A DNA stretch of 36,788 nucleotides from Kiritimatiellota bacterium (GCA_030590505.1 JAUUYH010000002.1:1-36788), one strand, 5' to 3'; positions 5,980-36,788 are shown, numbered from the stretch's first letter. The notes: generated by a model not told the origin, from the sequence alone. Translations and numbers: made by a program.

Positions 5980-8900
5980 TCATCTCCAATTCTGGATCTG
6001 CTTAATTAAATATCGCTCCTCCCAAGAGAGGGCATTATTGTTAACATTCATCACTTTTACAATTTTAGATTTAACTAACGGGTTCTTACAATGCACCATA
6101 ATTCCTAAAATACCATAACTGAATGCTTTTTCTGGTTGATGTTCTTTAAAAAGCCTAGCAATAATTAATGATGGCTCGCTATCTGTAACAACATTCAAAT
6201 CTTCTACATCTTTCTTAGAGACCAATGATGAAGCTGAGAAGTACTGCATTAAAAAGTTTTTAACCTCCTCTTTTGAGTAATTCCCCAAAGCATATTCTGC
6301 CCCAGCGTTAAGCATCAGCAAACCAGGATAAAAACGTGTAGTACAAATTTCCGCTCTATTTAAACCTGCAACTGTAATTTTTTTTACATCTCCAGCGTAT
6401 GGATTGTTTGCCATCTTCAATAAAAGCACTTTACGCCATAGATCTCCTGAGACGAGAAGAGGAGTAACTTTTTTCTCCAGTGAGTTAATTAACAACTCCT
6501 CACCTGCAAATATCGCCCCGTTCATTGTATGGTATCGTGCCAGAGCGGCAATCAGCACTTTCGCAGAGGTATCTGAATGATAACACTTTAAAAGCATCAA
6601 CTCGTTGATTTGCGATTTTCGCAAAGCTTGTTGATTGAGCAATTCCCCCGCTGCAGTGACAAATTTCAAATCTCCACGAAATTTAACCTGCGCCCCATAT
6701 ACATCGTGCAGGCGCCCACTTAATGATTGGAATTTAGGAATATTTAATGGATGATTACTTTCAATGCATGCTTGCAGTCCAAGAAGGCCCACTTTTACGC
6801 TCATAGCATACGAAGATAATGCTTGGTAATTATATGTGGCAGAAGTTAATAATGGAAACCTAGTTTGGCGTGTAAGCAGATCATATTCAAAAATCAAAGA
6901 TAATATCAACGGAGCCATTGCCCCAGTTTTATAATGTGAGTACTGAGTTTCCATCATTTGATGAATCTTTGCACGTGCTGATCCATTGCCAAGTTGCATA
7001 TCTGCCAGACCATAGGCAAAGATTAATGCACTCTTCCATGATTTTATAGTAGTAGGAGTTACAGTATTGGCAATATTGCTAATTTTTTTTGAGTTAAATA
7101 TAGCATAAACAAGCGGCCAGTCTCCATTATCAAGTGCTGTGGATAATTTCATCGCCTGAAGAGCCACTGGCTGAAATTTAAGCTTATTACTTTTTATTAC
7201 AATATCAAGGAATGCCTGTGCCGCCCCCTGCTTCTCTTTCGTCCAATAATAAAAGGGGATACGGTTATCCGAAAGACGCTTTACTCCACTTACACGAGCA
7301 AGTGCCAACTTCGCTTTTTTTTGAGTCGCATTGAGGTGGTCTATCTCATTTGCATTTAGCTTAAGCAAGCAATTACTGTAACGTGCACGTATTACCATAG
7401 CAGCATTGAATCTTTTTTCAGCACTTACAGGCACTTGAGGGATATTCTGTATCTGATCAATCGCTGTTAACTCTGGGGTGTATTTATGCAACTGAGCCTT
7501 AATTTGAGGTAAGATTATTTCATATCTTGAAGCGAAGAGCGAGCCCCTAGGTGCTTTAGAAAGTTGGCAAAATAAGGTGACAGCTTTAGAATACTCCTTA
7601 GCCTTCAAGGCATCATCAATCATCTTAAGAAGAGTGATGCACTGCACCTCATTACTGCTTATGTCAAAATCCTTTTTTATTGATTCCCAGCACTTTTGAT
7701 TTCTCTTCGTCAAATTCTGCACATTATTAAAGATATCTAAAAAACTATCAGGTACAAATAAAAGAGTAAACGAAAGAATTACATTATTCTCTTCGCCTGT
7801 CAATGCATTCTCCACAGATAGCACCCCTTCTTTTAATAAAAGAATAAGGTGTTTATGGGAAATTGATGCCCATTGCATTGTATGACCTAGTGTAACTTTT
7901 GCATTATTATGATAAGCCAGCTTAATTCCTTTGTCTGTAAATGCTCTCACACTGTAATTTTTTAACTTTTTAGAACACATCTCTGGAGGCAATTTCTTAT
8001 TGTTAAAATACGACTCTTTAGATTTAATTAAACTAATTATTTTCCCTGCACTTGGAAGAATCGTCGATGTAAAAAATTCAACCCTGATTGTATATTGTGG
8101 TGCGATAACATCTGAGCCTTGATCCCACTCTTGTAAACCGCTTTTTAGGGTCGTTAGGCTGTTCCCGTTTCTGAAACCATCCAATGCTATATAGTAGTTG
8201 TTTATTGTACCGTTCAGTGCAAGTTGAGTTTGATGGTCTTCCTTTTCTTGAGATAACGTTTCCCGCTCTAGCTCTAATTTGCCAAGCTGCTCTTTTGCAA
8301 TTTTTTCATTGCGAATTTCGTCCATTTTTTCTCTATGCTGCCTCAGACGATCTGAAAGTTTTTTATATACATCAGTAAGAAACGTCTTGCTTCCTAATGG
8401 AAACATCAAATAGCTGACATCCGAAGCTTTTCTTAGAATATCCTGTAACTTCTTATTTAAATCTTGCATTTCTGCAATAGGCGTCTTTTGACTATCTATA
8501 TTCACAGCTTTCACCGATACCAACACTGCATTAACGCGTTTCTCAAACTGTGCCTGTTCTGAAGCTCGCCTCTTTCTATTTCCCTCTATAGTTACAACTC
8601 TTGCTTCCAATGTTTTCAACCTAGACAATGCCTCAGAGGGAACATCATTGTCGTGATCTTCTATAAAATTCTTTACTTTTTTTAAAGCGATTGTCGGATT
8701 TTTCTTAAATATCTCTTTTTTTAATTTATTCCACTCCGCAATAACAACTTCGGGATTGGCAATCCTTATTTTTCCGCTTTTTCCCTCAGAGTCCTCCTGC
8801 TTTAAGAAAAGCATCGCCACCACTCCAACTCCTAAAATAATAATTACACTAAGAAGTGATTTGACAATTAATGATAACTTTTTATCACTCACGATAGAGG

Positions 8901-9885
8901 CTGCTGGATCGATATGCAGATGGGTATGAAAAACCTTTTTTGAAACCTCCGGCTCCCGTATTTTCTTCAATGCAAGATGGACTGCCTCCCAGGTCTCTGG
9001 TCTATTTTCCGGACTCTTTGCAAGCATCTGCTCACATATCTCGACTAATGCCGGTGCAAGTTTAGAATTATAGCTAAGTAACGGAGATGGTGTATCATTG
9101 AGATGTTGTTGAAAAATTACTTCTGGGTCATTATCTGGAAATGGTGGAACTCCTGTAAGCATTTGATATAAAGTTGCCCCAAAAGAGTACATATCAGAGT
9201 GAAACCCGATTAACTCAACTTCACCCTTGATTACCTCAGGCGGAGCGTAAAGGGGTGTTGCCATAATGCCGTCCTCAAAATTGTCATCATGCACAAATTT
9301 TGCAAGCCCCAAATCTGCAAGTTTTGCACTGCCTGCATTGTTTAAAATAATATTATCTGGTTTTATGTCGCCATGTGTCAATTTCTGAAATTTCCAAGCG
9401 TAATCAAGAGCATCTGCAATTTTAACTGCAATCTTTAAAGCCTCTTTTGGGGCAAGTTTGCCATGAGACTCTATGCTTGTCTCAAGCGTCTCACCCTCAA
9501 TCAACTCCATAGCAAAAAAGGATACTCCTTCTGGTGATCGTCCTGCATCAAAAACCTGCACAATATTGGGATGATTTAAGCTGGCGGCGGCACGGGCTTC
9601 TTTAAAAAAACGTTCAACAAATTCTCGGTCATTTGCCAAGTCATCTGCAAGAACTTTCAGTGCAACATCACGCTCAAGATTCAACTGCCGTGCCCGGTAA
9701 ACAATTCCCATACCGCCACGCCCTAACTCGTCCACAATCCTGAACCCACCCAGCATTGTCCCCGGAGGTAGATAATTCGCCGAATGAATAATCACCGCAC
9801 CACAGACAGCACACAACTGAGCATTACTGTTGGCATCCTTCCTCAGCTCTACATCTTTTTCACATCTATAACAATATCTTTCCAT
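5980..9885 (-). CDS. Membrane-bound Hanks-type Ser/Thr kinase with N-terminal Zn ribbon and very long C-terminal helical region
   Basis: CYRC...CAVC, LGRGGMGIVY, VALK, HGDIKPDNI, DLG, YAPPE, DMYSFG, TM helix LLSVIIILGVGVVAMLFL. Confidence 0.92.
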   Translation of the reverse strand: MERYCYRCEKDVELRKDANSNAQLCAVCGAVIIHSANYLPPGTMLGGFRIVDELGRGGMGIVYRARQLNLERDVALKVLADDLANDREFVERFFKEARAAASLNHPNIVQVFDAGRSPEGVSFFAMELIEGETLETSIESHGKLAPKEALKIAVKIADALDYAWKFQKLTHGDIKPDNIILNNAGSAKLADLGLAKFVHDDNFEDGIMATPLYAPPEVIKGEVELIGFHSDMYSFGATLYQMLTGVPPFPDNDPEVIFQQHLNDTPSPLLSYNSKLAPALVEICEQMLAKSPENRPETWEAVHLALKKIREPEVSKKVFHTHLHIDPAASIVSDKKLSLIVKSLLSVIIILGVGVVAMLFLKQEDSEGKSGKIRIANPEVVIAEWNKLKKEIFKKNPTIALKKVKNFIEDHDNDVPSEALSRLKTLEARVVTIEGNRKRRASEQAQFEKRVNAVLVSVKAVNIDSQKTPIAEMQDLNKKLQDILRKASDVSYLMFPLGSKTFLTDVYKKLSDRLRQHREKMDEIRNEKIAKEQLGKLELERETLSQEKEDHQTQLALNGTINNYYIALDGFRNGNSLTTLKSGLQEWDQGSDVIAPQYTIRVEFFTSTILPSAGKIISLIKSKESYFNNKKLPPEMCSKKLKNYSVRAFTDKGIKLAYHNNAKVTLGHTMQWASISHKHLILLLKEGVLSVENALTGEENNVILSFTLLFVPDSFLDIFNNVQNLTKRNQKCWESIKKDFDISSNEVQCITLLKMIDDALKAKEYSKAVTLFCQLSKAPRGSLFASRYEIILPQIKAQLHKYTPELTAIDQIQNIPQVPVSAEKRFNAAMVIRARYSNCLLKLNANEIDHLNATQKKAKLALARVSGVKRLSDNRIPFYYWTKEKQGAAQAFLDIVIKSNKLKFQPVALQAMKLSTALDNGDWPLVYAIFNSKKISNIANTVTPTTIKSWKSALIFAYGLADMQLGNGSARAKIHQMMETQYSHYKTGAMAPLILSLIFEYDLLTRQTRFPLLTSATYNYQALSSYAMSVKVGLLGLQACIESNHPLNIPKFQSLSGRLHDVYGAQVKFRGDLKFVTAAGELLNQQALRKSQINELMLLKCYHSDTSAKVLIAALARYHTMNGAIFAGEELLINSLEKKVTPLLVSGDLWRKVLLLKMANNPYAGDVKKITVAGLNRAEICTTRFYPGLLMLNAGAEYALGNYSKEEVKNFLMQYFSASSLVSKKDVEDLNVVTDSEPSLIIARLFKEHQPEKAFSYGILGIMVHCKNPLVKSKIVKVMNVNNNALSWEERYLIKQIQNWR

Positions 9886-13450: not shown

Positions 13451-14566
13451 TTAACTCTCGTTATAGCTAAGAAAAAGGATAAAATCTCCGAGTGCAAGAA
13501 AATCACCAGCATGCATAAGCTTTTTCTTAACCTTCTCATCATTTACATAAGTTCCGTTTGTGCTGTTTAGATCTGCTGCTAAAACACTTTTCTCATAAAT
13601 AATCAGCTGAACATGCTGTTTTGACAAACTGGACTCTTCCATAGTATATGTAACATCCGTACCGCGACCAATACTTACAGCTTTGCCAGCTTGCGGAAGT
13701 TCAAGATTTACCGCAGATTCAGCACTCTCCCCAAGTACTTGTAAAAGCATAAAAGTCTTCTTTGCTGTAGCAGAAAAGTCCATAAAATCACCAGCCTGTG
13801 CAATAGTTGTTGATTCAGGAATCGAAAATCCCAACTCCCCGATGGAAAAGTGCGAACCTGCACATATGGGAGTAGGCTCTGTAATTACAGCACCCTGCAT
13901 CAATAGTGGGAATTTATCACTCAATGGTTCAATAAAAAGCTGATTGTTGTAGCTGTTAATCATTGCCAGAAAAGGCTCTTTCAATATCGGATCAAGATTA
14001 TCCTCTAACATAGATTCAGTGATTACAACATCACAGATAGCCTCTGCCCCGATCAAACATGGCTCTTTAGAATTAAATGGGGTCTGAAGTTTTCCATTCT
14101 TTAATTCAAATTTGTGTTGAGGGTTAATCTTCTGAGACATTTTGAATTCATTATTACCATTCACAAGAACTAAATGAGTATCACCTATCTTTAAGGTGCA
14201 GTAACCATTATGCTCAAACACAAACTGATAATTGGGAATTCCATTGATCTGTAGCATATTAGCTCTGGCATATTCCATAACAAACCATGAACTGCCTAAC
14301 TTCTGCACGACAACCTGAACACGTTCCGACTCAGGTTCTGAAATACAGATCTCCGAATCATGCGCACTGTTTCCTATGCAATACCTCATTTTATTTGAAG
14401 AAAATTCCTTACTCTGCCACTCCTTGCCAACACGAGAATAACATACCATATTTGGCAATTTCTTAAGATCTTTAGAAGAAATCGTTGATCCATCTCTTCC
14501 TTTGGTCTTGTTCATGATAGCGTTAAGAGTTGTCTTTATGGTCGGAGAACTCTGTGTTTTATCCAT
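13451..14566 (-). CDS. FHA-domain protein with one canonical C-terminal FHA and two degenerate FHA-like segments
   Basis: C-terminal SIGRG...SKQH...DLNSTNGTYVN...GDFLALG. Upstream segments (YCIGN...LQING, CLIGAEAICDV) look like FHA folds lacking the pThr-binding residues. Confidence 0.8.
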   Translation of the reverse strand: MDKTQSSPTIKTTLNAIMNKTKGRDGSTISSKDLKKLPNMVCYSRVGKEWQSKEFSSNKMRYCIGNSAHDSEICISEPESERVQVVVQKLGSSWFVMEYARANMLQINGIPNYQFVFEHNGYCTLKIGDTHLVLVNGNNEFKMSQKINPQHKFELKNGKLQTPFNSKEPCLIGAEAICDVVITESMLEDNLDPILKEPFLAMINSYNNQLFIEPLSDKFPLLMQGAVITEPTPICAGSHFSIGELGFSIPESTTIAQAGDFMDFSATAKKTFMLLQVLGESAESAVNLELPQAGKAVSIGRGTDVTYTMEESSLSKQHVQLIIYEKSVLAADLNSTNGTYVNDEKVKKKLMHAGDFLALGDFILFLSYNES

Positions 14567-14816
14567 TTGATTACCCCCCCGTATTAATTGATATTATTGC
14601 ATAAAATATACACAAACTCATTCAGAAAATCTACCAAATGACGAATCATTGCTTACTTATATTACCATAATGTAGAAAAAATACAAGAAAATCTAAAAAA
14701 AGACTCAAAACTTTGCGAATTTCGCAAATTGCCATTATGATTGCCTGATCACAACCTATCATACTGTCGTCCTACTCGGGCAAATACAACATTGCGGGCT
14801 CATGCCTTTCTATGTT

Positions 14817-14980: not shown

Positions 14981-16777
14981 TTATTTAGAATGCTCAGTTT
15001 GATACTCTTTGATTGCTTCACAAAAGAACTTTCCATACTGCGCCATCTTTACCTGACCAACACCTGAGATCTGCAACATTGCACCCCGTGATGTCGGATA
15101 CTCCCTTGCCATTTCATGCAATGTTTTATCTGAAAAAACAAGATACGGTGGGATATCACGTCTCTTAGCAATAACAGTCCTCACCTGACGCAGGCACTCA
15201 AAAAGAGCTTTATTGTAATCTTTTGTGCGACTTATTTTTGATATCCCCGCCTGTTTTTCAACCTTAACGGGTTCAATAATTGAAAATTTCTCAGAACCAA
15301 ATAAAATATTACGTCCACGATCAGTAAGTTTGATCTGATTATGCTCATCACTCATCTGCATAATTGCGTCTTTCGCAAAAAGTGCATCAATAAGAAAAGT
15401 CCACTCCTTGTTTGATATTTCACTGCCGACCCCGTATGTCTTTATTTCCGTGTGATTAAACATCCTTATCTTTTGTGTGTTCGCGCCACGAATAATGTCA
15501 ATAATATGGTTCCTGCCAAACATCTCTTCTGTCCTCAATACTGCTGACATAAAGATCTGAGCTTCTCGTGTTGCATCGCGTGTTGAAAATTTCCCACTAC
15601 AAACATCACACGAACCACAATTTGTACCTGGGAACTCCTCTCCAAAATATTTCAACATAGCTTTTCGACGACAAATATGGTTATTCGCAAAAGATGACAT
15701 AGATGCGAGTTTCGCACTATTTCGCTTTTTCTCCTTTTCATCCTCCACCTGCCCAATAAAAAACTTTATTGTAGCCTCATCGCCGTAGGAGTGAAGTAAC
15801 AGACAGTGCGCTGGCTCACCATCCCGCCCAGAGCGGCCCGTCTCCTGATAGTAACTTTCGATATTTTTCGGAAGATCACCGTGAACAACAAAGCGTACAT
15901 TCGATTTATCAATTCCCATCCCAAATGCGATTGTCGCAACAATTACTTGAATATCATCTTTATTGAATGCATCCTGATTTTTCTTGCGAATTTCGCTATC
16001 GAGCCCAGCATGATAGGGCAGAGCATTAATTTTATTCTTCTTTAAGTAGGCAGCTGTCTTTTCAACGGATTTTCTAGTTGTACGATATACAATACCTGCC
16101 TCATCTTTATGCTGCTCAATAAAATCGAGGATTTCTGAATTAACATCTATTTTTCGCTGTACCTGGTAAAAAATATTTGGTCGATTAAATGATGCAAGTA
16201 TGTTAAACGGAGATACTAAATTCAGTTTCATCAGAATATCATCCTGAACATGCGGCGTAGCTGATGCGGTAAATGCGGCAAGCGGTGTATCTGGAAAATT
16301 CTCCTTCAATTTAGATAAAACCATATAGTCTGGTCGAAAATCATGCCCCCACTCTGAGATACAATGAGCCTCATCTATTGCAAAAAATGCGATATTCGCA
16401 CGTTGCTGAAGATCCCTAAAAAAGTAGTCTAAGGACAATCGCTCTGGAGCAAGATAGAGTAGATCTAAAGAGTTATTCCCTATTGCTACATCAACTTCTC
16501 GTTTTTCAGATATAGTAAGGGAACTGTTGTAGTAGGCCGCACGTATACCGTTGGCTCTGGCACCATCAACCTGATCTTTCATCAACGCAATTAGCGGACT
16601 GATAACCACACACATACCCGAGCTTAAAACCGCAGGAAGTTGATAACAGAGAGATTTCCCACCACCGGTTGGCATTACGGCAAACACGTCACGCTTATTT
16701 AGCAGTGCTGCGATTATCTCTTCCTGATTCTCACGAAAAGAGTCAAATCCAAAAACATTCTTTAAATGAGTTTTCAT
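14981..16777 (-). CDS. recQ: ATP-dependent DNA helicase RecQ
   Basis: MPTGGGKSLCYQLP, IDEAHCISEWGHDF, VATIAFGMGIDK, YYQETGRSGRDG, Zn-binding CRR...CGSCDVC, RQC and HRDC (PPYLVFSDKTL). Confidence 0.97.
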   Translation of the reverse strand: MKTHLKNVFGFDSFRENQEEIIAALLNKRDVFAVMPTGGGKSLCYQLPAVLSSGMCVVISPLIALMKDQVDGARANGIRAAYYNSSLTISEKREVDVAIGNNSLDLLYLAPERLSLDYFFRDLQQRANIAFFAIDEAHCISEWGHDFRPDYMVLSKLKENFPDTPLAAFTASATPHVQDDILMKLNLVSPFNILASFNRPNIFYQVQRKIDVNSEILDFIEQHKDEAGIVYRTTRKSVEKTAAYLKKNKINALPYHAGLDSEIRKKNQDAFNKDDIQVIVATIAFGMGIDKSNVRFVVHGDLPKNIESYYQETGRSGRDGEPAHCLLLHSYGDEATIKFFIGQVEDEKEKKRNSAKLASMSSFANNHICRRKAMLKYFGEEFPGTNCGSCDVCSGKFSTRDATREAQIFMSAVLRTEEMFGRNHIIDIIRGANTQKIRMFNHTEIKTYGVGSEISNKEWTFLIDALFAKDAIMQMSDEHNQIKLTDRGRNILFGSEKFSIIEPVKVEKQAGISKISRTKDYNKALFECLRQVRTVIAKRRDIPPYLVFSDKTLHEMAREYPTSRGAMLQISGVGQVKMAQYGKFFCEAIKEYQTEHSK

Positions 16778-25698: not shown

Positions 25699-25703
25699 GA
25701 TAC

Positions 25704-25734: not shown

Positions 25735-25760
25735 CTATATATCTTTAAAAAGAGTCTTGC

Positions 25761-26276: not shown

Positions 26277-26280
26277 TATT

Positions 26281-27315
26281 CTAGTTCTCCTCTTCCTCTT
26301 TATCTTCAGCACGAAGTTTATCAGCTTCAGCATTTAACGCAATGACAAGTTCTTCTGTCATCTTCATGCCGAGACCAAGTCCCATGCTCTCAAGTTTTTC
26401 GATAATTTCATCAAGAGATTTCTTACCGAAGTTACGATATTTAAGCATTTTATTTTCAGATTTCTGGCAAAGCTCGCCGAGAGTTCTGATATCAGCATTA
26501 TTAAGACAGTTCTGTGCACGAACAGAGAGTTCGACATTTTCAACTGGCTGAATAAGTGTTCTGTATAATTTCTGTTCCTCTTCAGATATAGCAGCAAGCA
26601 TATCATCTTCATCAGATTGCTTTCCTAGGAAAGGACGAAGGTGATCCTGCAGAATTTTAGACGCTCTTTCGAGTGCATCTGGAGGATTCATTCTACCATC
26701 TGTCCAAATCTCCATTACGAGACTGTCCATCTCTGTCTCTTCTCCAACACGTGCTGCACCAACTTCATATCTTACACGAGTTACAGGACTGAAGAGAGAA
26801 TCTATAGGAATAGTTCCAAGTGGATGATCCGCTTTTTTGTTCTTTTCTGACGGAGTATATCCCCTTCCTTTGATTACCTCAATTTCTGCACGGAAACTAA
26901 CTTTTTTATCAAGTGTACAGATAATCTGGTCCGGATTGAGTACTTCCATAGAACCATCAGTTATAATATCAGCCGCTGTTACAGTACCTGCAGCATTTTT
27001 TACTATTTCAAGCTGCATTGATGATGCATCAGTATTGCAATGAAGTCTTACCTGTTTTAGATTAAGGATAATTTCTACTACATCTTCAATAACATGTGGC
27101 ATTGTCGCAAATTCATGAGATACACCATCAATACGTACTGCGGAAATAGCCACACCTTCCAAAGATGAAAGGAGAACTCTCCGTAATGAATTACCTATAG
27201 TATGTCCGAATCCGCTTTGCAGTGGTGCCGCAGTAAACTCACCATAAGTATCAGTTGCAGTTTTTTCATTCAACTCAATTACCTTAGGCATTGGAAATCC
27301 TGAAATAAAAGCCAT
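26281..27315 (-). CDS. rpoA: RNA polymerase alpha subunit
   Basis: PLQSGFGHTIGNSLRRVLLSS, IDSLFSPV, CTD LSVRAQNCL...NFGKKSL. Confidence 0.98.
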   Translation of the reverse strand: MAFISGFPMPKVIELNEKTATDTYGEFTAAPLQSGFGHTIGNSLRRVLLSSLEGVAISAVRIDGVSHEFATMPHVIEDVVEIILNLKQVRLHCNTDASSMQLEIVKNAAGTVTAADIITDGSMEVLNPDQIICTLDKKVSFRAEIEVIKGRGYTPSEKNKKADHPLGTIPIDSLFSPVTRVRYEVGAARVGEETEMDSLVMEIWTDGRMNPPDALERASKILQDHLRPFLGKQSDEDDMLAAISEEEQKLYRTLIQPVENVELSVRAQNCLNNADIRTLGELCQKSENKMLKYRNFGKKSLDEIIEKLESMGLGLGMKMTEELVIALNAEADKLRAEDKEEEEN

Positions 27316-27414
27316 TTGTATTCCTCCATAAAATGGCGCTTCCGATAAAAATTAACCGTAAAGCGCGTAAATTATTTAAATTTAATATTGCAGTAAAAAC
27401 AGTTATTAAAACTG

Positions 27415-27900
27415 CTATACACGTCGCCTTTTTGGAGGCCTGCATCCATTATGAGGAACAGGCGTTATATCCTTCAGGACTGAAATATCCATTCCTGCAG
27501 CGACAATTCCCCTTACAGCTGATTCGCGTCCAGCTCCGGGTCCTTTAATTCTTACTTCAACTTCACGCATCCCGAGCGTCTGTGCTTTTTTTGCAGCGTC
27601 AGTTGCGACCTGCTGTGCAGCATACGCAGTGCTCTTTCTGGATCCTTTAATTCCCATCTTACCAGCACTAGACCAGCACAGGGTATTACCATGAAGATCA
27701 GTAAAAGTTACTTTAGTATTATTAAAAGTGGCATTAATAAATGCGATACCAGCAGGTATTGCACGTCCACTTCTTGCACGTTTAGTGCCCTCTGTTGATG
27801 GTGAAGCCTCAGGTTCCTTAGTTGCTTCAACAGCAGCTTTAGGAGCATCAACAACTGCAGTCTCTGCAGCCACTTCACTCTTTTTTTCATTATCAGCCAT
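27415..27900 (-). CDS. rpsK: 30S ribosomal protein S11 with N-terminal extension
   Basis: [44 protein letters not shown]. Confidence 0.98.
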
Positions 27901-27936
27901 AAATAGAATCCTTGCTTATTTTGCAGTCTGCCCGAA

Positions 27937-28332
27937 TCAGGTTCCGGCAAGTTTACGTTGAGTTTTATCACGAATCGCGCCAACAGTCTGTTTGCGGCCC
28001 TTACGAGTTCTAGCATTGGTCTTTGTTCTCTGACCACGAACAGGGAGGCTACGACGATGCCTGAACCCACGATAAGATCCGACGGCCTGAAGCCTACGGA
28101 TATCCTGAGCAATCATACGTCTCAAGTCTCCTTCTACAGCATAATCATTCTGTAGAATAACAGTTATTTTTGAGATGTGTTCGTCTGTGAGATCATCAGC
28201 TTTCAACCCGATCGGAATTCCAGCTTTTTTGATAATATCCATAGCCCGAGTCGGCCCTACACCATAAATATAGCGCAAAGCGTATTCAATTCGCTTTTTG
28301 CCCGGGATGTCAATTCCAAGTATACGTGGCAT
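27937..28332 (-). CDS. rpsM: 30S ribosomal protein S13
   Basis: MPRILGIDIP, YIYGVG, YRGFRHRRSLPVRGQRTKTNARTRKG. Confidence 0.98.
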   Translation of the reverse strand: MPRILGIDIPGKKRIEYALRYIYGVGPTRAMDIIKKAGIPIGLKADDLTDEHISKITVILQNDYAVEGDLRRMIAQDIRRLQAVGSYRGFRHRRSLPVRGQRTKTNARTRKGRKQTVGAIRDKTQRKLAGT

Positions 28333-28352
28333 AATATAAATTCCTTACAGTT

Positions 28353-28469
28353 TTAGCCCTGTCTCTGTTTATGACGAGGATTGCGCGAACATAAGATTCT
28401 AACAATTCCATTACGTTTTACCACCTGGCAATATTCACACCGGCGTTTTACAGAAGCCCTGACTTTCAT
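28353..28469 (-). CDS. rpmJ: 50S ribosomal protein L36 (Zn-binding C+ type)
   Basis: Not in the ORF track. Manual translation: [38 protein letters not shown]. Confidence 0.98.
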
Positions 28470-28639
28470 TTTTAAACCTATTTTTTAATTATATGTTAAC
28501 TACTAAATTTCCAAGCATATATTTAAATAGTACCTGTATTTCACCTTAATGTTAATACAAATTCTACCTAAAATGCAACTTCATGCTCAGTGTCCTTCAC
28601 CTAAACAGGACAATTTTCCCCTATAAAATGGGGACGTGT

Positions 28640-28667
28640 AAACTAGACTCTTCCTGCATATAGTCAA
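28640..28667 (-). promoter_or_regulatory. Candidate sigma70 promoter of the rpmJ-rplQ operon
   Basis: Minus strand TTGACT (28667-28662), 16-nt spacer, TAGTTT (28645-28640), with an AT-rich upstream tract. Confidence 0.5.
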
Positions 28668-28700
28668 GCGAGTAATATAAAAAAAATCACTTTTTTTTTA

Positions 28701-30083
28701 TTATTTTTTGAGCTTGAGTACAAGAGGGCTCTTTTTTGCTGAAATTTTAATGGCTGTTTTTCTTTTTTTTAGCTTGGATAGCTTCTTCTTTTGCGGTGGC
28801 ATATTTCTTCGTGATCCCGCGGGTAACGCCTTATGATTTATTGCATCAACGACAGCCTCCCAAGTCAAAAAACGCTCTTCCGGTGTTTTTGCCATCAATT
28901 TAGTTATAATATTTTTTGTCTTGCCTGAAATGGATTTACCAGATGGGAATCTGATTTTTTCCCTAAGGTGTTTTTCAATCAAGGCATACGCACTAGGTGC
29001 TGAAAACGGAGGAGCACCAGTCAAGAGTTCATAATAAATTGCCCCTAGAGCATATTGGTCAGAGGTCCAGTCTAATTGCTGATCGAGTGTCTGCTCAGGT
29101 GGCATATACTGAGTAGACCCGAAAAAATATGCCCTATTCGTCTGAAAAACATTTGAGACCCACGGCGCCAGCCCCAAATCAGCAACAGCCGGCATTGAGT
29201 TCTCATTAAAGAAAATATTGGAAGGAGTAATATCGCCATGAAATAGTCCGAATCCTGAAGCATATACCATCGCTTCACTTATCGACAATATATAGTTGGT
29301 TACATCTTTTTCTGCAATGCCATCCGGGAATTGAGGCATAAGTGTTGCTAAAGTACCCTGAGGAGCGTACTGCATGGCAACATAGCAGAGGTTGGCTGTA
29401 ACTCCAGCATCTATAAAACCAAGGATATTCGAATGATTTAACTTACCAACATTACTGACCTGCTGAAGAAAAAATCTCTGCTGCTCTTCTGTAATAAAGT
29501 CTGTGTGAAATGTTTTTAATGCAACAGTTCGCTTCAACCCTGTCTGAAATACTAGATAAGTTGTAGAGTAGTTCCCACCACCAAGTAGACGTAAAAATTC
29601 AAACCCCTCAACTTCCGGAAAAATATCCTCCCCTTGCTCAGAAGACGCAAGAGCTACAGGTGTAATCGGCTCCAAGTTTGTTGTATCTTTAAATGGGTAT
29701 TCATCAGGGGGAGAAAGATCAGGAACAGCTTTTTTGACATATATTGTAGTTGTATCGACCAGTTCATACGGATTATCCTGATATGAATAAAAAGTAAAAT
29801 GCATATCCCCGACTCCAATCACATCACCATCCCTCATAGGGCACTGCTGAGCTTGGAGGCAAAGGTCGTTTAAGTATGTTCCATTGCTTGAACCTAAGTC
29901 TCTCACAACATAATCACTGCCATTGGGGTCTTTAAAGATCATGCAGTGCTTACGACTAACAGAAGAGTCTTCACGCAAACGTACATCATTCTCCATGCTA
30001 CGCCCGAGATAAAATTCAAGAATCTCATCAGCTATAGGGATAGATCTATTAGAGATAGTGTTGTCATAAACAAGATATGGCAT
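28701..30083 (-). CDS. Cytoplasmic FHA-Ser/Thr kinase with a basic C-terminal tail
   Basis: FHA: LGR...VSRKH...DLGSSNGTYLN. Kinase: LGGGNYSTTY, VALK, HGDITPSNI, DLG, YMPPEQ, SDQYALG. Confidence 0.9.
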   Translation of the reverse strand: MPYLVYDNTISNRSIPIADEILEFYLGRSMENDVRLREDSSVSRKHCMIFKDPNGSDYVVRDLGSSNGTYLNDLCLQAQQCPMRDGDVIGVGDMHFTFYSYQDNPYELVDTTTIYVKKAVPDLSPPDEYPFKDTTNLEPITPVALASSEQGEDIFPEVEGFEFLRLLGGGNYSTTYLVFQTGLKRTVALKTFHTDFITEEQQRFFLQQVSNVGKLNHSNILGFIDAGVTANLCYVAMQYAPQGTLATLMPQFPDGIAEKDVTNYILSISEAMVYASGFGLFHGDITPSNIFFNENSMPAVADLGLAPWVSNVFQTNRAYFFGSTQYMPPEQTLDQQLDWTSDQYALGAIYYELLTGAPPFSAPSAYALIEKHLREKIRFPSGKSISGKTKNIITKLMAKTPEERFLTWEAVVDAINHKALPAGSRRNMPPQKKKLSKLKKRKTAIKISAKKSPLVLKLKK

Positions 30084-30097
30084 TATATTTTATAGTG

Positions 30098-31702
30098 TTA
30101 ATTATTTTTAAATTCCTCAATACGCCTCAGCCTATCTTCTTCCATTTCACGCAGTCTCTTGCCCTCAAGAATACCTTCCTGCTCTTCTTTTATAAGTATA
30201 TTCTCTTTGATAAGAACAAATTTTGTAAATTTCAACTTGTCATCAGTTAAAGAAATGAGAAGTTTTGCAATTATCATCTTCCCAGACCAAGTCAGCTGAA
30301 TGTCTTTCTCTATTATCGGTTCAGTAAGGTCGGCTTGTCTTACTCCACATTTTGTACATATTTTATTTTTTGCCCACTTATGCGTATCCTTGCCTTTTTT
30401 GTCTTTTTTGCACAGATTCCTTATTGCCTGTAGACGAGTTTGCCTTTCATGCTCTTTTTCACCCGCTTCGACCATCTCAGTTGAATCTCCGTAATTATCC
30501 TTAATGGAGTCCCAGAGAAGCTCCATCGCTTCGGCAGGGCCTATGCGGTAAATTACTTCAATTTTATATAAAAGATTATTGATAAAAGAGAAGATAACTC
30601 TATCTATTTTGCCTTTGGGATATGATAATGTCGCAGTAACTCCTTCACCTTTAAGGCCAGTCAAAAGATTTACTTCATCATGAGTTAAACCTAAAAGAAC
30701 CACTAGGTCACCTTTTGTAAAAGAGTGATCAGCATCAATTCCATACTGAGAACCGGAAATTTCCATCTGCTTCTTCTCGATATTCTGTTTCAATTTTGCG
30801 ACTTCTAGAGCAATCTTAGCATACGCATCCACGCCATCGGGTGCCTCAGGTTCTGTACCAAAATCCTCTCCTGAAGCATCCACTAGATCGGGTAACCCCT
30901 CAGCATTGACATCAGCTGTAACCACCTCAGGCATTTTTCTGATCTCTTGCTTAATAATAATTTCAGCAACCTCTTTTGGTGTACGCCACTTATTCCAAAC
31001 ATAAAGGTACCCTAAATTAATATTTGTTGTAACTACTTTCTCACGTTCTTCAGTAAAATACTTATTCATCAATGACTGCTTTCTCTTAGAATATATTTTT
31101 ACTTTTTTAGCAATATACTCTTTTCTGATTTTCGCACAGAAAACCTTATCAAATTTTGCCCTATCAGTATCAACTAGATCAATAAATGCAATTGGTGTAT
31201 GATCTCCTATAACTACACTGTTGCCGCCAAGACCAAATCTGTAAAAAATCCCAGAAACAACACTTGAACGCCTTCCCTGTAGAATCTTGACAGTTACAAA
31301 CTCTAGCTTATCCTTAAGTATATATTTCTTCACTGCCTCTTCTGTCGCTTTTAGTTTTACATTCTTTATGCTAACCGGAAAGCGCTTATGTACAATTTTG
31401 CGAACATCGCTAGCTATATCTGCAAGTTTTTTCGTAAAGATCTCTTCTTTCGGCTCAAGTAGCATTTCGCGTCCAACTGCACCTAAAATAGCCTCCTGAA
31501 CTAAAAAGTCCCTTAAGTTCTCTTTTTCAGCCACGAACTGCCCTATAATGCGCTTGATACTATTTATCCGTATTGCTGAAATATCTATAGTTTCTGCATC
31601 AAGTCGATCTAATGCAGGGAAAACCATTAGAAAAGCAATTAAAAGAAAATTTGAAAAAAATCTCTTTCCCGTCTTGTTCATTTTGTAATATGGGCTATTC
31701 AT
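30098..31702 (-). CDS. Secreted hypothetical protein with a possible small Zn-binding motif
   Basis: 534-aa ORF with an N-terminal signal-like segment and C...HKW...CTKC near the C-terminus. Confidence 0.75.
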   Translation of the reverse strand: MNSPYYKMNKTGKRFFSNFLLIAFLMVFPALDRLDAETIDISAIRINSIKRIIGQFVAEKENLRDFLVQEAILGAVGREMLLEPKEEIFTKKLADIASDVRKIVHKRFPVSIKNVKLKATEEAVKKYILKDKLEFVTVKILQGRRSSVVSGIFYRFGLGGNSVVIGDHTPIAFIDLVDTDRAKFDKVFCAKIRKEYIAKKVKIYSKRKQSLMNKYFTEEREKVVTTNINLGYLYVWNKWRTPKEVAEIIIKQEIRKMPEVVTADVNAEGLPDLVDASGEDFGTEPEAPDGVDAYAKIALEVAKLKQNIEKKQMEISGSQYGIDADHSFTKGDLVVLLGLTHDEVNLLTGLKGEGVTATLSYPKGKIDRVIFSFINNLLYKIEVIYRIGPAEAMELLWDSIKDNYGDSTEMVEAGEKEHERQTRLQAIRNLCKKDKKGKDTHKWAKNKICTKCGVRQADLTEPIIEKDIQLTWSGKMIIAKLLISLTDDKLKFTKFVLIKENILIKEEQEGILEGKRLREMEEDRLRRIEEFKNN

Positions 31703-31793
31703 TTAGTTCCTAAATTTTAAAATGTAAATATCTTGATGCGCTAACAATCATAAATATAGCAGTATATTAAATTTTTTCAAATAATAAATTAAA

Positions 31794-32744
31794 ATGATAA
31801 TAAATATAAAATCTTATTCGCTTAAATTGACACAAATTCAACTTGCGAAACTTACTAAAATCGTCAATGACGGAACATGGGATCTTGGCGAGATTCCGTA
31901 TGCTCATTGGAAGGCAAAAAAAGAGAATGTATCTGTTGCTGCCTATAATAGCGGCAAATGTGTGATACAAGGAAAGGGGACAGGTGAATTTTTAGAATTT
32001 ATCTTGGAGCCTCAAATAACAGGGGTACTTGATGACATACATAGCTCATCACCACCTTCAGAGAATGATGCAGATGCCTCTCTTCCCTTACCGCATGCTG
32101 GCATTGATGAAAGTGGTAAAGGAGATTATTTCGGACCATTGGTAATTGCTACGGTTTTTGTTGATCAATCAATGGAATGTGCACTTTTGGATGCGGGAGT
32201 AAAAGATTCAAAAATCATCAAAAGTGAGAAAAAAATCATTAAAATTGCCTCTGAAATTAGAAATATTGTAAAGGGGAAATTTGCGATTGTCGCAATCGGT
32301 CCTGAAGCATATAATCGACTTTATGATAATATAAAAAATTTGAATAAACTTCTTGCATGGGGCCATGCAAGAGTTCTTGAAGATCTTTTGACGAAGACTC
32401 CTGAATGCAAAGTTGCACTCTCTGATAAATTCGGCAATGAATCGCTTATCAAAAACGCCCTCCTCGAACAAGGGAAGAAGATAACCCTCCATCAGAAAAC
32501 AAAAGGAGAGAGTGATATAGCAGTTGCAGCAGCATCAATTATTGCAAGAGATGAGTTCGTACGCAGATTACATCAACTGGGCGAACCGCTGGGAATCGAA
32601 CTTCCGAAAGGTGCATCTGCGAAGGTTGAGGAGATGGCGCGAGAAGCAGTACTGACTCATGGACGGGATGTACTTGCGAAAATCGCAAAACTTCACTTCA
32701 AAACAACAACAAAAATCATGGCCACTATCAACCCAGAATGGTAG
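31794..32744 (+). CDS. rnhC: Ribonuclease HIII
   Basis: N-terminal TBP-like YNSGKCVIQG; GIDESGKGDYFGPL, GVKDSK, DKF, KGES...VAAASIIAR, AKLHFKT. Confidence 0.95.
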   Translation: MIINIKSYSLKLTQIQLAKLTKIVNDGTWDLGEIPYAHWKAKKENVSVAAYNSGKCVIQGKGTGEFLEFILEPQITGVLDDIHSSSPPSENDADASLPLPHAGIDESGKGDYFGPLVIATVFVDQSMECALLDAGVKDSKIIKSEKKIIKIASEIRNIVKGKFAIVAIGPEAYNRLYDNIKNLNKLLAWGHARVLEDLLTKTPECKVALSDKFGNESLIKNALLEQGKKITLHQKTKGESDIAVAAASIIARDEFVRRLHQLGEPLGIELPKGASAKVEEMAREAVLTHGRDVLAKIAKLHFKTTTKIMATINPEW

Positions 32745-33913: not shown

Positions 33914-34477
33914 CTAATGTTCTTTCCATTCCGCCATACAGTTGCGCAGATTACTAATCGCGTACTGCATTCGTCCTAAAGCCGTATTGATTGAGCACTC
34001 TTGAATTTCGGCTATCTCCTTAAAACTGAACTCATCTTGTCTAAGTATAAAAACCTCTCTCTGCTCCTCTTTCAACTTTGCAGTACAACGAGCAAGTGCA
34101 TCTGCTAATTCCGCATTATCAAGTTTTCTCCATGGCTCATTGCCAATAACTGCAAAAAGTTTTGAACCCTCCGTGTCTTCAGTCAAAATTTCATGTTTGG
34201 ATTTTCGAAAATGATCTATTGCCAAATTATGCGCAATTCGCATTACCCAACCCATAAATCTCTGACTATCCTTATATTTAGGAAGTTGCCGAATCACTTT
34301 TATCCAAGTATTCTGAAAAATATCATCTACTAGGGCATGCTGCCCAGGCAAAAGACGATTCAAATACGCATACAATTGATTACGATATCTGGCATATAAA
34401 ATATCAAATGACGCACTGTCACACTCCAGAAATTTCTCAATCAGTTGTATATCAGATAACTCTTCCGGCATCTTCAT
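33914..34477 (-). CDS. ECF RNA polymerase sigma factor
   Basis: DDIFQNTWIK, WVMRIAHNLAIDHFRK, QREVFILR...SFKEIAEI...INTALGRM. Confidence 0.95.
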   Translation of the reverse strand: MKMPEELSDIQLIEKFLECDSASFDILYARYRNQLYAYLNRLLPGQHALVDDIFQNTWIKVIRQLPKYKDSQRFMGWVMRIAHNLAIDHFRKSKHEILTEDTEGSKLFAVIGNEPWRKLDNAELADALARCTAKLKEEQREVFILRQDEFSFKEIAEIQECSINTALGRMQYAISNLRNCMAEWKEH

Positions 34478-34622: not shown

Positions 34623-34758
34623 TGTAGTTTAAGGTTTTATAAATCATTCTTGGACAAATTTTAATATTTTTTCTCTTCGTAACGTGCGAGAATCGCAAAA
34701 TGCATTATACTTTCTGCACAACGTTGAATAATAAACTTTAATGCCGTGAATAGATATA

Positions 34759-34806: not shown

Positions 34807-34835
34807 TTAGATGAGATGGAGTATTACCAAATATA

Positions 34836-35771
34836 ATGATAAACACGATAGAAAAACCGAAAGACCACACGCAGAAGCCGATAACGTGGCCAATTACCAT
34901 TTGGATTCTGCTGCTTGTGCTCTGCTGGGCTACAAATTCTGTTATCGTAAAATTTGTCGTGGAAGCTATGCCGTCGGCGTGGGGAGCATTTCTGCGTTTT
35001 CTAATTGCTTATCCGCTTGTTGTTATATTTATTCTCCTGCAAAAGCCCTCTCTGAAGATTGGTAAAAAAGGAGCGACAATCTGTATATTACTGTCGCTTA
35101 TGACATTTGTACAGATTATGCTATTCAATATCGGTGCACAATATACCACTGGTGGACGCGTTACAATGTTAATTTTCACCTACCCGCTTATTGTTCCGTT
35201 TATTGCACATTTTCTGCTCAAAAATGAGAAACTTCAGCTTCGTACAATTATCGGAAGTGTAATTGCCTTTGCCGGCCTGATGATACCGTTATACGATACA
35301 CTTATCAATCAAGGCCCCACACTGAAAGGAGATCTTCTCGAGCTGCTAAGCAGTCTTGTTCTATCGCTTCTGATTGTTACCAATAAATATGCTTTTTCGT
35401 TTATGAATAAATGGACTGTATTTTTCTGGCAGGCAACATTTAACCTGTGTCTCTTTGGCGGCACTGCTCTATTCACATCGGGCTTTGTGCCGTCAGAAGT
35501 AACAGCAACAGCATGGTGGAGTCTTATATTTCAGGCATTGGCAATAAGTGTGTTCGCATTTTTATCATATCAATACATACTTGCAAGGCACAACTCATCA
35601 AAGGTATCTATCTTCTTCTTTGCCACTCCACTCTTCGGAATGCTGCTCGGCGGAGTGATCCATAAGGAAGCATTTGAAATATCTCTGTTTGTTGGGTGTA
35701 TTTCTGTTGGTTTGGGTATATTTTTAGCTAACAGCAAAAAAAAAGCGAAAAAAAAGGAACAGAATGGATAA
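34836..35771 (+). CDS. DMT/EamA family transporter
   Basis: About 10 TM helices in two EamA repeats; WA...VK, FLRF, YPLIV, GD, PLFG. Confidence 0.92.
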   Translation: MINTIEKPKDHTQKPITWPITIWILLLVLCWATNSVIVKFVVEAMPSAWGAFLRFLIAYPLVVIFILLQKPSLKIGKKGATICILLSLMTFVQIMLFNIGAQYTTGGRVTMLIFTYPLIVPFIAHFLLKNEKLQLRTIIGSVIAFAGLMIPLYDTLINQGPTLKGDLLELLSSLVLSLLIVTNKYAFSFMNKWTVFFWQATFNLCLFGGTALFTSGFVPSEVTATAWWSLIFQALAISVFAFLSYQYILARHNSSKVSIFFFATPLFGMLLGGVIHKEAFEISLFVGCISVGLGIFLANSKKKAKKKEQNG

Positions 35772-36788
35772 CAGAAAAATAGTTATCAACGTAACAATGG
35801 TCGGAATTATTCTGCTTCTAACAAGTTCAATTGTCAGAACTGGCGCATCGTTATATCTTCCAGCACTTCCCATTATCGGTCAGGATTTAGATATTTCGGA
35901 TGCAACAATGAGTCTGACCATTACGGTATATTTTGCTGCATTCTCATTTTTTGTATTTCTTACAGGTCCTTTTTCTGATGCGTTCGGCCGACGACGCCTT
36001 ATTCTACTTGGAGTTTTGATTTTTATCATTGGCTCGTTCCTCTGTGGGTTAGCAACATCAGCATCTTATCTCATTGTCGGACGCATCTGCCAGGCAATCG
36101 GTGCAAGTATGATTCCAGGAACTGCACGTGCAATGATCCGTGATGTTGGAAATGACACACAGGTTATATCTCTGATGGGGTGGATGGCAATCTTGGGAGG
36201 AGTGATGATGATTGCCGCTCCAATTATGGGAGGAGTTATTACAGAGCATCTTACATGGCGTTATAATTTTCACTTTCTCGTTGCATTCTCTATCTTTGTT
36301 TTTGCTATCCTTATTATGAAGTTACCGGAGACTCTTATTCGAGAGAAAAGGATAAAGCTGCACCCATCAAAGACATTTAAAACTTACGGGAATATCATTA
36401 TTTCTCCAAGTTTTTCTCTCGTCGTTATGCCGATTGTTGTATGCTATGCAGTGCAGGGAGCTTATCTTGCGGCGGCTCCATTTATTTTCATCAAGGGTTT
36501 TAAATTAACTCCGACTCAATTCGGGCTGACAAATATCTGTATCGTTATAGCTCTCCTCATCGGACGTCATCTGTCCATAAAGTCAACAAAAAAATACTCT
36601 CCATCGACAGCATATATGATCGGTGCCTCAATCGTCTTTGCTGCGGGTGCGTTTTTTGCGATAATCGCAATTTACCAACTATACAATATCCACATACTGC
36701 TTTTGGGAATCTCCATCTTCGGACTAGGCTTCGGAATCGTCGCTCCCATAGGAATGAAGTCGTCAATCACAACTTTCAGAAAAACAAG
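35764..36788 (+). CDS. Bcr/CflA-type (DHA1) MFS transporter, truncated by the window end
   Basis: Not in the ORF track. ATG 35764 gives MDNRKIVINVTMVGIILLLTSSIVRTGASLYLPALP...GPFSDAFGRRRL (MFS motif A), later GRICQAIG and APIMGG...WR. Confidence 0.88.
   Translation, partial: MDNRKIVINVTMVGIILLLTSSIVRTGASLYLPALPIIGQDLDISDATMSLTITVYFAAFSFFVFLTGPFSDAFGRRRLILLGVLIFIIGSFLCGLATSASYLIVGRICQAIGASMIPGTARAMIRDVGNDTQVISLMGWMAILGGVMMIAAPIMGGVITEHLTWRYNFHFLVAFSIFVFAILIMKLPETLIREKRIKLHPSKTFKTYGNIIISPSFSLVVMPIVVCYAVQGAYLAAAPFIFIKGFKLTPTQFGLTNICIVIALLIGRHLSIKSTKKYSPSTAYMIGASIVFAAGAFFAIIAIYQLYNIHILLLGISIFGLGFGIVAPIGMKSSITTFRKT

Follow-up and report, generated by a model that had tools for sequence, protein, structure and literature searches.

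A spaced palindrome, TGCGA-N3-TCGCA, iterated throughout the genome of a Kiritimatiellota bacterium and several of its relatives

The stretch analysed here, called the window below, comprises 36,788 nucleotides of an uncultured sediment bacterium of the Kiritimatiellota (GCA_030590505.1 JAUUYH010000002.1:1-36788). Its genes include a Ser/Thr kinase gene, recQ, a fused rpiB-glyA gene, a gene of the RNase HII/HIII type and transporter genes, and within and between them lie repeated copies of a 13-bp spaced palindrome, TGCGA-N3-TCGCA, hereafter the word. The window is contig C158 of genome G000, an assembly of 2,535,744 bases in 263 contigs that is 86% complete and has a GC content of 0.387, not the roughly 36% assumed in an earlier sequence-only reading. 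That reading had listed 12 exact copies of the word and seven with one mismatch, and all 12 and all seven were recovered at their positions by pattern search. In 100 dinucleotide-preserving shuffles, exact TGCGANNNTCGCA occurs 0.01 times on average and at most once, 0 of 100 shuffles reaching the observed 12, which agrees with the earlier chance estimate of about 0.01 per window. A search that tolerates a single mismatch yields 19 sites, namely the exact 12 and the seven near copies, against a shuffle mean of 0.84.

Nine of the exact copies lie within open reading frames (ORFs), one in the kinase gene, three in recQ, two in rpiB-glyA, two in the RNase HII/HIII-type gene (rnhC in the earlier reading) and one in a major facilitator superfamily (MFS) transporter gene, and three are intergenic, a placement that ORF reading confirms. 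Pfam identified the Ser/Thr kinase, the RpiB-serine hydroxymethyltransferase fusion, the RNase HII/HIII-type protein and the MFS protein; the recQ label comes from the earlier reading and from homologues, without Pfam. Eight of the nine coding copies are read as xxT-GCG-Axx-xTC-GCA. The ninth, TGCGATTTTCGCA at 6611–6623, lies in the kinase ORF (5980–9885, minus strand) and reads TTG CGA AAA TCG CAA, encoding L-R-K-S-Q. The first intergenic copy, TGCGAATTTCGCA at 14714–14726, separates a gene for an FHA-domain protein (13451–14566) from recQ (14981–16777). Within recQ, exact copies are found at 15704–15716 (AGT GCG AAA CTC GCA, S-A-K-L-A), 15926–15938 (GTT GCG ACA ATC GCA, V-A-T-I-A) and 16388–16400 (R-A-N-I-A), and one-mismatch copies at 15365–15377 (TGCGTCTTTCGCA, A to T at position 5) and 15985–15997 (TGCGAATTTCGCT, last A to T). 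Seven sequencing runs (all Logan contigs, none listed as RNA) match the window, with a single variant inside a word site: one metagenome contig (run X1) has A for C at 16397, which changes the site at 16388–16400 to the commonly tolerated TGCTA-type half-site.

Further along, TGCGAATTTCGCA recurs at 17707–17719 between a hypB-like gene (16818–17651) and hypA (17781–18128), where the palindrome extends to 21 nt with its flanks, and a near copy, TGCGAAATACGCA, follows at 17757–17769 (T to A at position 9). The rpiB-glyA gene holds exact copies at 18567–18579 (A-A-K-L-A, exact in G000 only among the orthologues compared) and 18969–18981 (I-A-K-L-A), and TGCGAAATACGCA again at 19134–19146. From 18969 to 32282, a stretch that includes rpoA, no further exact copy occurs; near copies are located there at 22651–22663 in an ORF for a tetratricopeptide-repeat protein (TGCTAACTTCGCA, G to T at position 4, the commonest tolerated change) and at 31399–31411 (TGCGAACATCGCT). 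The RNase HII/HIII-type gene (31794–32744) has exact copies at 32282–32294 (F-A-I-V-A) and 32675–32687 (L-A-K-I-A). The remaining copies are a one-mismatch site at 34230–34242 (TGCGCAATTCGCA, A to C at position 5), an intergenic exact copy at 34685–34697 (TGCGAGAATCGCA) in the divergent region before an EamA-type transporter gene (34836–35771), and an exact copy at 36657–36669 (F-A-I-I-A) in the MFS gene (35764–36786).

The recQ gene, with its three exact and two near copies, has its best matches, at 55%, in metagenome-assembled genomes (MAGs) labelled Nitrospirota and Chlorobi, and was probably acquired horizontally. No close recQ orthologue was found in the bacterium's own family (best match 44% over half of the protein), which makes the gene unsuitable for following site conservation, and glyA was used instead. 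RpiB and serine hydroxymethyltransferase are fused in a single 572-residue ORF (18207–19925), and open frames of about 573–600 residues at the orthologous locus in most of 40 relatives suggest that the fusion is conserved across the order.

The word is not peculiar to the window. It occurs 1218 times in the 2.54-Mb genome, that is 0.48 copies per kb or about one per 2,000 letters, and as in the highly iterated palindromes (HIPs) of other bacteria this is far above composition: Markov simulations give 4 and 1 copies at order 3 and 5 and 2 at order 5, and the same half-sites at spacers of 0–2 and 4–12 occur only 0–3 times. Half-sites in reverse order yield 0–15 copies and in direct order 1–20, and 35% of the TGCGA pentamers on one strand (1218 of 3442) are part of a word copy. 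Thirty synonymous-codon shuffles within genes, performed on a crude set of 1955 ORFs of at least 100 residues that covers 82% of the DNA, retained 12–31 copies (mean 21.0; 21 ± 5) against 1022 observed in ORFs. Neither outcome that the earlier reading had named as refuting, similar counts after codon shuffling or equal frequency at other spacers, was thus observed. Sorted by mismatches, there are 1218 exact sites, 941 with one, 1028 with two and 6250 with three.

The copies occupy genes in several frames as well as intergenic DNA. ORFs contain 1022 of them (84%), in unique contexts and in all three frames (780, 153 and 89), 195 are intergenic, and one lies across an ORF end; the 780 in the prevailing frame encode A-x-[FLIV]-A. 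Density is 0.49 per kb in ORFs and 0.42 per kb between them, with exact to one-mismatch ratios of 1.32 and 1.23. Gene deciles are evenly filled (90–111 copies each), and tandem, convergent and divergent intergenic regions carry 0.42, 0.54 and 0.35 copies per kb. Spacing between copies is over-dispersed (coefficient of variation 1.4) and lacks regularity; small peaks at short gaps of 21, 31 and 40–42 bp comprise only 5–6 counts, and no periodicity is claimed. One of the 263 contigs is significantly depleted and two are enriched, and contig ends show no enrichment (24 copies within 100 bp, 24.5 expected). Since the three frames and intergenic DNA are affected alike, and neither codon shuffling nor spacer length explains the copy number, the earlier proposal that the constraint acts on DNA rather than protein is upheld, as is its placement of the word in the class of iterated palindromes and uptake words. 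The word is a tag on the DNA itself and is explained neither by codons or composition nor by a mobile repeat.

The genome-wide logo of the word is w-t-Y TGCGA a-n-t TCGCA R-a-w and is flat beyond ±3, so that no long flanks are conserved. Spacer position 1 is A in 65% of copies and position 3 is T in 64%, both stronger than the preference at the middle base, and spacer words are about as frequent as their complements (AGT 150 and ACT 122, ATT 127 and AAT 113). The sequence-only reading had written the spacer as NWN; all 12 window copies do have A or T in the middle, but genome-wide only 70% do (A 0.32, T 0.38), which makes this a preference and not a rule. One-mismatch variants number 7–21 per position at letters 2, 3, 11 and 12, 56–58 at letters 1 and 13, and 115 and 135 at letters 4 and 10 (mainly G to T and C to A), and are commonest at letters 5 and 9 (267 and 250). 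A distance of 10 bp, about one helical turn, separates the centres of the TGC and GCA blocks.

A hairpin or cruciform form of the word was rejected: three copies from the window have single-strand folds of −4.3 to −8.3 kcal/mol, but symmetric positions do not covary. Complementary pairs were observed about as often as independence predicts (470 against 437 at −1/+1, 392 against 404 at −2/+2, 396 against 427 at −3/+3, and 567 against 565 for spacer positions 1 and 3), and double half-site variants occur roughly at the product of the single variants, whether pairing is kept or not. Independent variation of the half-sites suggests that the word is read not as a hairpin but in duplex DNA, by a symmetric dimer that would sit on one face of the helix. 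In contrast to the asymmetric, strand-biased Chi words, the word equals its own reverse complement, and instead of the contiguous GC-rich palindrome of 8–10 nt typical of HIPs it consists of two half-sites around 3–5 soft positions.

The pressure is also visible in proteins. Between 65 and 92% of the five-residue contexts compatible with the word carry it, namely 780 of 1208 in the xxT GCG frame, 153 of 167 in TGC GAx and 89 of 113 in xTG CGA. The compatible peptides are themselves in 3.5- to 11-fold excess, their numbers of 1208, 167 and 113 comparing with 318–358, 14–19 and 11–21 in five within-protein shuffles and with 421, 8 and 12 for reversed peptides, and most coding copies must therefore have needed amino-acid changes. 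The word bends the proteome, amino acids having been changed to fit it; in order of magnitude, some 800 sites have been recoded, and 11.3% of all GCG codons are located in a word copy. Contig C97, which to judge from ORF sizes rather than annotation is probably the rpoBC and ribosomal-protein cluster, has only four copies in 32 kb. The genes densest in the word (AsnB, CysRS, GluRS, PurL, CobQ, a DegT-type aminotransferase and a GT4 glycosyltransferase) are all ordinary enzymes and were dropped as a clue to function.

Site conservation was followed in GlyA, with loci from 30 of 41 genomes, five rows of which (G017, G027, G030, G032 and G034) were dropped as mis-extracted ORFs. The site at window position 18969 is exact in G000, G002, G021 and G028, has one mismatch in G033 and G038, and has two or more in G003, G001 and G010. 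Of the 12 rows from word-bearing families (f1, f7, f8, f10 and f12), 10 have its first Ala codon, against 0 of the 13 others, which have E, Q or N. A single-gene tree, obtained by a quick search only and with the five mis-extracted rows included, places those 13 on one side of a branch (SH-aLRT 87) and G001 and G003 as sisters (90), and is weakly consistent with one old origin followed by later losses.

Among relatives, the exact word was scanned in 251 genomes of the same order and in a phylum sample of 401 genomes. It is abundant in all 18 genomes of family f7 (339–1041 copies, against 1–28 for the reversed-word control) and in part of family f1, where G000 has 1218, G002 352 and G004 233 but G001 only 18 and G003 14. 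Numbers are moderate in G011 (110), G013 (68) and G015 (65), and low in all 144 f3 genomes (at most 32) and all 60 f6 genomes (at most 23). Among the roughly 265 genomes of the phylum sample that lie outside the class, none exceeds 14 copies. A scan of 351 class genomes for the shorter core TGCG-N5-CGCA gives a wider picture. In the same order, core and reversed control number 503–1718 and 11–122 in f7, 1800 and 19 in G000, 597 and 31 in G002, 479 and 16 in G004, and 206 and 10 in G013. In other orders the corresponding values are 898–1442 and 22–26 (g84), 812–959 and 69–116 (g73), 1749 and 158 (G559), 429–989 and 90–152 (f15), 1424 and 195 (G579), 937 and 196 (G585), 299 and 14 (G484), and 280 and 42 (G620), and enrichment is about 3-fold in f75, f80 and f85. 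Close relatives of enriched genomes can lack it: G001 has 108 against 91, G003 50 against 76, g217 19–20 against 8–20, and G580 and G581 are at about 1-fold. None of the 47 f14 genomes and few of f3 and f6 are enriched, the latter 3- to 7-fold (e.g., G155 with 35 against 5 and G076 with 67 against 13). As for HIPs, the distribution is that of a large clade with lineages of loss, and sister contrasts with and without the word (G000, G002 and G004 against G001 and G003; g84 and g73 against g217; G579 against G580 and G581; also G585 against G582–G584 and G013 against G022) make a reader findable by gene content.

Samples of 400 kb show how the word differs between lineages. In G010 (f7, GC 0.35) there are 108 exact copies and 0–1 at other spacers, with 69 of 154, 21 of 28 and 10 of 15 contexts filled, and in G033 (f7, GC 0.565) 37 exact copies and none at other spacers, with 22 of 118, 7 of 14 and 4 of 6 filled. 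In G522, from another order and with a GC content of 0.41, there are 78 core copies against 2–6 at other spacers (controls 3); its inner five letters are nearly free (A 40% and G 37% at position 5, C 45% and T 27% at position 9) and its flanks stronger (T 72% at −1, A 69% at +1), giving the dialect tTGCG-N5-CGCAa. G411 mostly uses TGCGAASTTCGCA, and G000 and f7 share TGCGA-aNt-TCGCA. The core is thus enriched at GC contents from 0.35 to 0.57, always at a single spacer length. What the class has in common is the half-site TGCG and the distance between its two copies, whereas adjoining letters differ as dialects; TGCGA-N3-TCGCA, the only form in the earlier reading, is the local dialect of the class-wide core TGCG-N5-CGCA.

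The sequence-only reading had also suggested that methylation might drive the word, and this is not borne out. The families PF00145, PF01555, PF02086 and Vsr (PF03852) have 0 matches in G000 (86% complete), so that no C5, N4/N6 (PF01555), Dam-type or Vsr enzyme was found. N6-type genes are present, namely a type I HsdM, a 1009-residue Eco57I/MmeI-like enzyme and several fragments. The closest match to HsdM, at 62%, is in word-poor G036, and there is none at 1e-20 in G002, G004, G021 and G038; the 1009-residue enzyme has no orthologue among 40 relatives. PF00145 occurs in 21 of 41 genomes including many word-poor ones, and was not found in G000, G010, G021 and G038, four of the eight word-rich genomes among the 41. 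Searches of this kind are bounded by incomplete MAGs and by enzyme specificities that are not readable from sequence. Among the 41 genomes sampled, no methyltransferase appears to track the word, unlike the cognate enzymes expected wherever a HIP is abundant. Parts of the transformation machinery are encoded in G000, as in bacteria with uptake words: ComEC (contig C254), DprA (C59) and a PilM-type protein (C109). As a separate observation, the f7 genomes G010 (C21), G021 (C141) and G028 (C343) have a second, longer ComEC-like gene of 930–951 residues beside the usual one of about 700–770.

Dispersed repeats form a different class of sequence in these genomes. The other enriched palindromes of G000 are almost all intergenic with long conserved flanks, and include TACCGCttGCGGTA (197 copies, two in ORFs), TGCGTTG...CAACGCA (109 copies), CCCACCaaGGTGGG followed by a T-run (108 copies) and AGGCAttccTGCCT (72 copies). 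The word as a dispersed repeat of the repetitive extragenic palindrome (REP) or miniature inverted-repeat transposable element (MITE) type was rejected, given its location in ORFs, its unique contexts and its lack of long flanks. In the window at 20795–20985, and throughout G000, two intergenic hairpin families adjoin. The first is terminator-like, CCCGCCAAGGTGGG plus a T-run, whose CCCACC..GGTGGG form has 108 genome copies; the second is REP-like and built around TACCGCTTGCGGTA; its consensus, about 45 nt long, is palindromic, and it has 197 copies, two of them in ORFs. Metagenome contig depth over 20795–20985 rises to hundreds or thousands. An intergenic repeat of about 250 nt is present in three copies in G000 (C231:18700–19100, C247:16200–16600 and C262:6870–7300), each with two words, GGTTGCGAGGTTCGCATAA and TTATGCGAATTTCGCATAA, 40 bp apart; a small RNA gene and a MITE are both conceivable identities. 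A mild excess in f3 and f6 was rejected as a regulon-like signal of the word, being due to one fixed 13-mer, TGCGATGATCGCA, with 10–30 copies per genome in G234, G244, G086 and other f3 and f6 genomes, often within about 100 bp of contig ends; the 13-mer probably marks an insertion-sequence end or belongs to some other repeat. The control word ACGCT-N3-AGCGT is itself enriched in G367 (81 against 3) and G457 (33 against 1), and its relaxed form in genus g72 (G367, G600 and G601; 314–334 against 149–187), and may represent another iterated word or a repeat. In G010 a CRISPR array (C1, 1–900; L125) has a 36-nt repeat with the word TTGCGATTTTCGCAG as its inner palindrome, a situation like that of HIP1 in the CRISPR1 repeat of Synechocystis (PMC6604393). 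Away from all of these, a 707-residue ORF at window 1976–4099 has GreA/GreB domains in its last 160 residues only, the N-terminal 550 or so residues having no Pfam match.

The explanation that we would place first, although tentatively and at somewhat less than even confidence, is a tag for kin DNA of the same class as HIP1 and the uptake words, spread by biased uptake, processing or recombination. We choose it because copy density, proteome bending and dialects match those of the uptake signal sequences (USS) of Pasteurellaceae and the DNA uptake sequences (DUS) of Neisseriaceae, and because HIP1 has been tied to transformation. USS and DUS, the source of the comparison figures for density and proteome bending, occur about once per kb, originate through point mutation and influence protein sequences; they too vary as dialects among related lineages, as the word does here between G000 and f7, G522 and G411. 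In such a scheme a symmetric, probably homodimeric, sequence-specific protein would read the word on duplex DNA, making contacts at TGC and GCA points one helical turn apart across the A/T-rich centre. Copies would arise by point mutation anywhere in the genome, and DNA bearing them would be kept preferentially through an edge in a DNA-handling step, most likely the recognition, processing or recombination of kin DNA in natural transformation. The word would then accumulate site by site until protein constraint stops it.

Several results weigh against a kin-DNA tag. No reader of the word was found, and ComEC, DprA and the PilM-type protein, encoded by 39, 40 and all 41 of the genomes searched (G000 included), do not discriminate word-rich from word-poor genomes. 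Known uptake words are asymmetric whereas this one is symmetric, and USS and DUS are richer between genes, whereas here coding and intergenic DNA are equally dense. The word is also carried by phages. IMG/VR, scanned three times with 15-letter forms of the word, returned at least 355 stretches, and among the matches listed (355 viral stretches, found by the word itself) 344 have one copy, eight have two, and one each has three, four and five. Phage G623 (36,940 bp, GC 0.40, direct terminal repeats, CheckV 100% complete) has nine exact copies (control 0), at spacer 3 only, eight of them inside ORFs and in unique contexts. It encodes a major head protein, portal, large terminase, tape measure, DnaB-like helicase, O-like initiator and endolysin, and no integrase was detected among the 20 of 56 ORFs scanned. 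In G625, a 10,068-bp fragment with a portal-head-tape-measure module (GC 0.33), the core occurs 13 times (control 1). G000 contains neither of the two as a prophage, G623 having three weak tblastn matches there, and the head protein of G623 has no close relative in IMG/VR and one weak match in the 351 class genomes, so that it is the word through which the two would be tied to these bacteria. Lytic phages should lie beyond the reach of any bias in transformation, so phage carriage favours a process inside the cell, and the equal density in coding and intergenic DNA pulls in the same direction.

The pressure behind the word acts at the level of DNA and site by site, is old, class-wide but patchy, independent of GC content and specific to one spacing, and acts on a phage too. 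This leaves room for a wider possibility, one that we hold with limited confidence: an undescribed, long-conserved, class-wide system that reads TGCG-N5-CGCA as a dimer without methylation and drives or selects the word into host and phage DNA alike. If so, the word would be a new genome-wide self tag or the product of molecular drive by biased repair, and, being two-part and methylation-free, the first in the HIP/USS class to have a reader that simple phylogenetic contrasts and DNA pull-down could uncover.

Biased repair may also be considered by itself. A dimeric enzyme would resolve mismatched, near-cognate TGCG-N5-CGCA sites towards the word by sequence-specific repair or gene conversion, much as very-short-patch repair does, except that the site is two-part and no cytosine methyltransferase is involved, so that mutation towards the word goes up and mutation away from it goes down in any replicating DNA. 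A repair model of this kind was proposed for HIP1 by Elhai (PMC4390886). It would account for the word in phage genomes, for the near-saturation of compatible contexts and for the equal ratio of exact to one-mismatch sites in coding and intergenic DNA. We nevertheless regard it as unlikely. Neither Vsr (PF03852) nor a C5 methyltransferase was found in G000 (86% complete), and a change that takes at least two steps would bring no benefit without graded recognition. We also know of no enzyme with such a property on a two-part site.

A protective self-mark, by which a host nuclease or defence system would spare word-bearing DNA or handle it differently, as RecBCD does with Chi, appears doubtful to us. 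A local, additive benefit would fit the saturation site by site, and phages copying the mark would explain why the genes of a phage contain the word. The enrichment of known Chi words is far lower, and no candidate system was found. For HIP1, two mechanisms are put forward in bioRxiv 10.1101/2024.09.10.611283, one of them Chi-like, but Chi words are asymmetric, strand-skewed and read on single strands (PMC5861425), unlike a symmetric word with independent half-sites.

Sites for a nucleoid-associated or chromosome-organising protein, the leading idea of the earlier reading, held by weak per-site selection in very large populations, seem improbable. The symmetric 13-bp layout with its A/T-rich centre is typical of dimeric DNA-binding proteins, the half-sites vary independently as such binding would predict, and matS has the same 5-3-5 shape. 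However, a requirement for density alone would not fill 65–92% of contexts or change amino acids, the over-dispersed spacing is not regular, phage carriage is left without a reason, and 1218 copies, not tens, are spread over all contigs and not confined to one region, which does not fit the macrodomain or occlusion site of the matS kind suggested in the earlier reading either. A HIP in Elhai's sense, with the target of an orphan methyltransferase inside the word and methylation-dependent repair or function maintaining it, is very improbable. HIP1 and alternate HIPs accompany cognate methyltransferases (PMC4390886), and G000 does have N6-type genes; the four families searched nevertheless gave no match in G000, neither its N6-type enzymes nor PF00145 follow the word in the relatives sampled, and the adenines at positions 5 and 9 are its least conserved letters. 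An origin of the word as a side effect of codon preference, biased dinucleotides, a frequent peptide or dispersed repeats, which the 780 of 1022 coding copies in one A-x-[FLIV]-A frame might bring to mind, is refuted by the codon-shuffle, Markov and spacer controls, by the equal effect on the other two frames and intergenic DNA, and by unique flanks, real repeats being intergenic with long ones.

Few non-coding signals in bacterial genomes are as strong as hyper-abundant short words such as HIP1, USS and DUS, and to our knowledge the function of HIP1 is still unexplained after 30 years. An independent iterated word in a different, uncultured lineage, whose two-part symmetric form points to a dimeric reader, is therefore of interest; as no methyltransferase was found to go with it, the phenomenon of iterated palindromes is separated from methylation. 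In practice, word density is a ready test for foreign DNA when these genomes are annotated, and the word could link uncultured phages to hosts, at least one complete phage being marked. A full-text search with six spellings, which did not cover most subscription journals and supplements, gave no published description of TGCGA-N3-TCGCA; the papers listed for iterated palindromes or uptake words together with taxa of the Planctomycetes-Verrucomicrobia-Chlamydiae (PVC) group made no mention of the motif, and those on spaced or bipartite palindromes yielded HIP1 and USS/DUS only.

HIP1 (GCGATCGC) and the alternate HIPs of cyanobacteria resemble the word in being palindromic, tens- to hundreds-fold above composition and present in all frames and intergenic DNA. 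HIP1 also shares with it a large clade with lineages of loss and variants, an unsettled function and reader, and a proposed link to transformation. The two differ in that HIP1 is a contiguous 8-mer methylated by two enzymes, whereas the word, in a non-cyanobacterial class, has two half-sites of 4–5 bases around a soft centre, 13 bases in all, and no methyltransferase that tracks it. In three HIP1 papers, mentions of phage or virus had no bearing on HIP1, and we know of no phage counterpart. HIP1 and the alternate HIPs are treated by Elhai 2015 (PMC4390886) and Xu et al. 2018 (PMC5861425); Rodriguez-Cruz et al. 2026 (PMC13756078) report a phylogenetic correlation of HIP1 with type IV pilus and competence genes, and bioRxiv 10.1101/2024.09.10.611283 an effect on transformation of up to more than 100-fold.

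The remaining systems each share part of this pattern. USS and DUS have roughly one copy per 1–2 kb, arise by point mutation, shape proteins, form dialects and occur with ComEC and DprA; they are asymmetric, enriched in intergenic DNA and often paired in terminators, whereas the word is symmetric, equally common in genes and between them, and phage-borne. Preferential uptake is established for USS and DUS. The matS sites of E. coli (GTGACRNYGTCAC), read by MatP, are 13-bp palindromes of 5-3-5 layout of the kind bound by protein dimers, but number about two dozen in the terminus region, whereas the word has 1218 copies on all contigs and saturates its coding contexts. Chi, in its RecBCD and AddAB forms, is likewise over-represented genome-wide and marks self DNA for a DNA-processing machine, and differs in being asymmetric, strand-biased and read on single strands, where the word has symmetric, independent half-sites. 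CRP-S sites (TGCGA-N6-TCGCA) in competence regulons of gamma-proteobacteria have identical half-sites with a spacer of 6 instead of 3, and unlike them the word occurs in thousands of copies, mostly inside genes. REPs and bacterial interspersed mosaic elements (BIMEs) are also short palindromes in hundreds of copies, but REPs are extragenic with long conserved flanks, and the REP-like families of G000 (197, 109, 108 and 72 copies, almost all intergenic) look quite different from the word.

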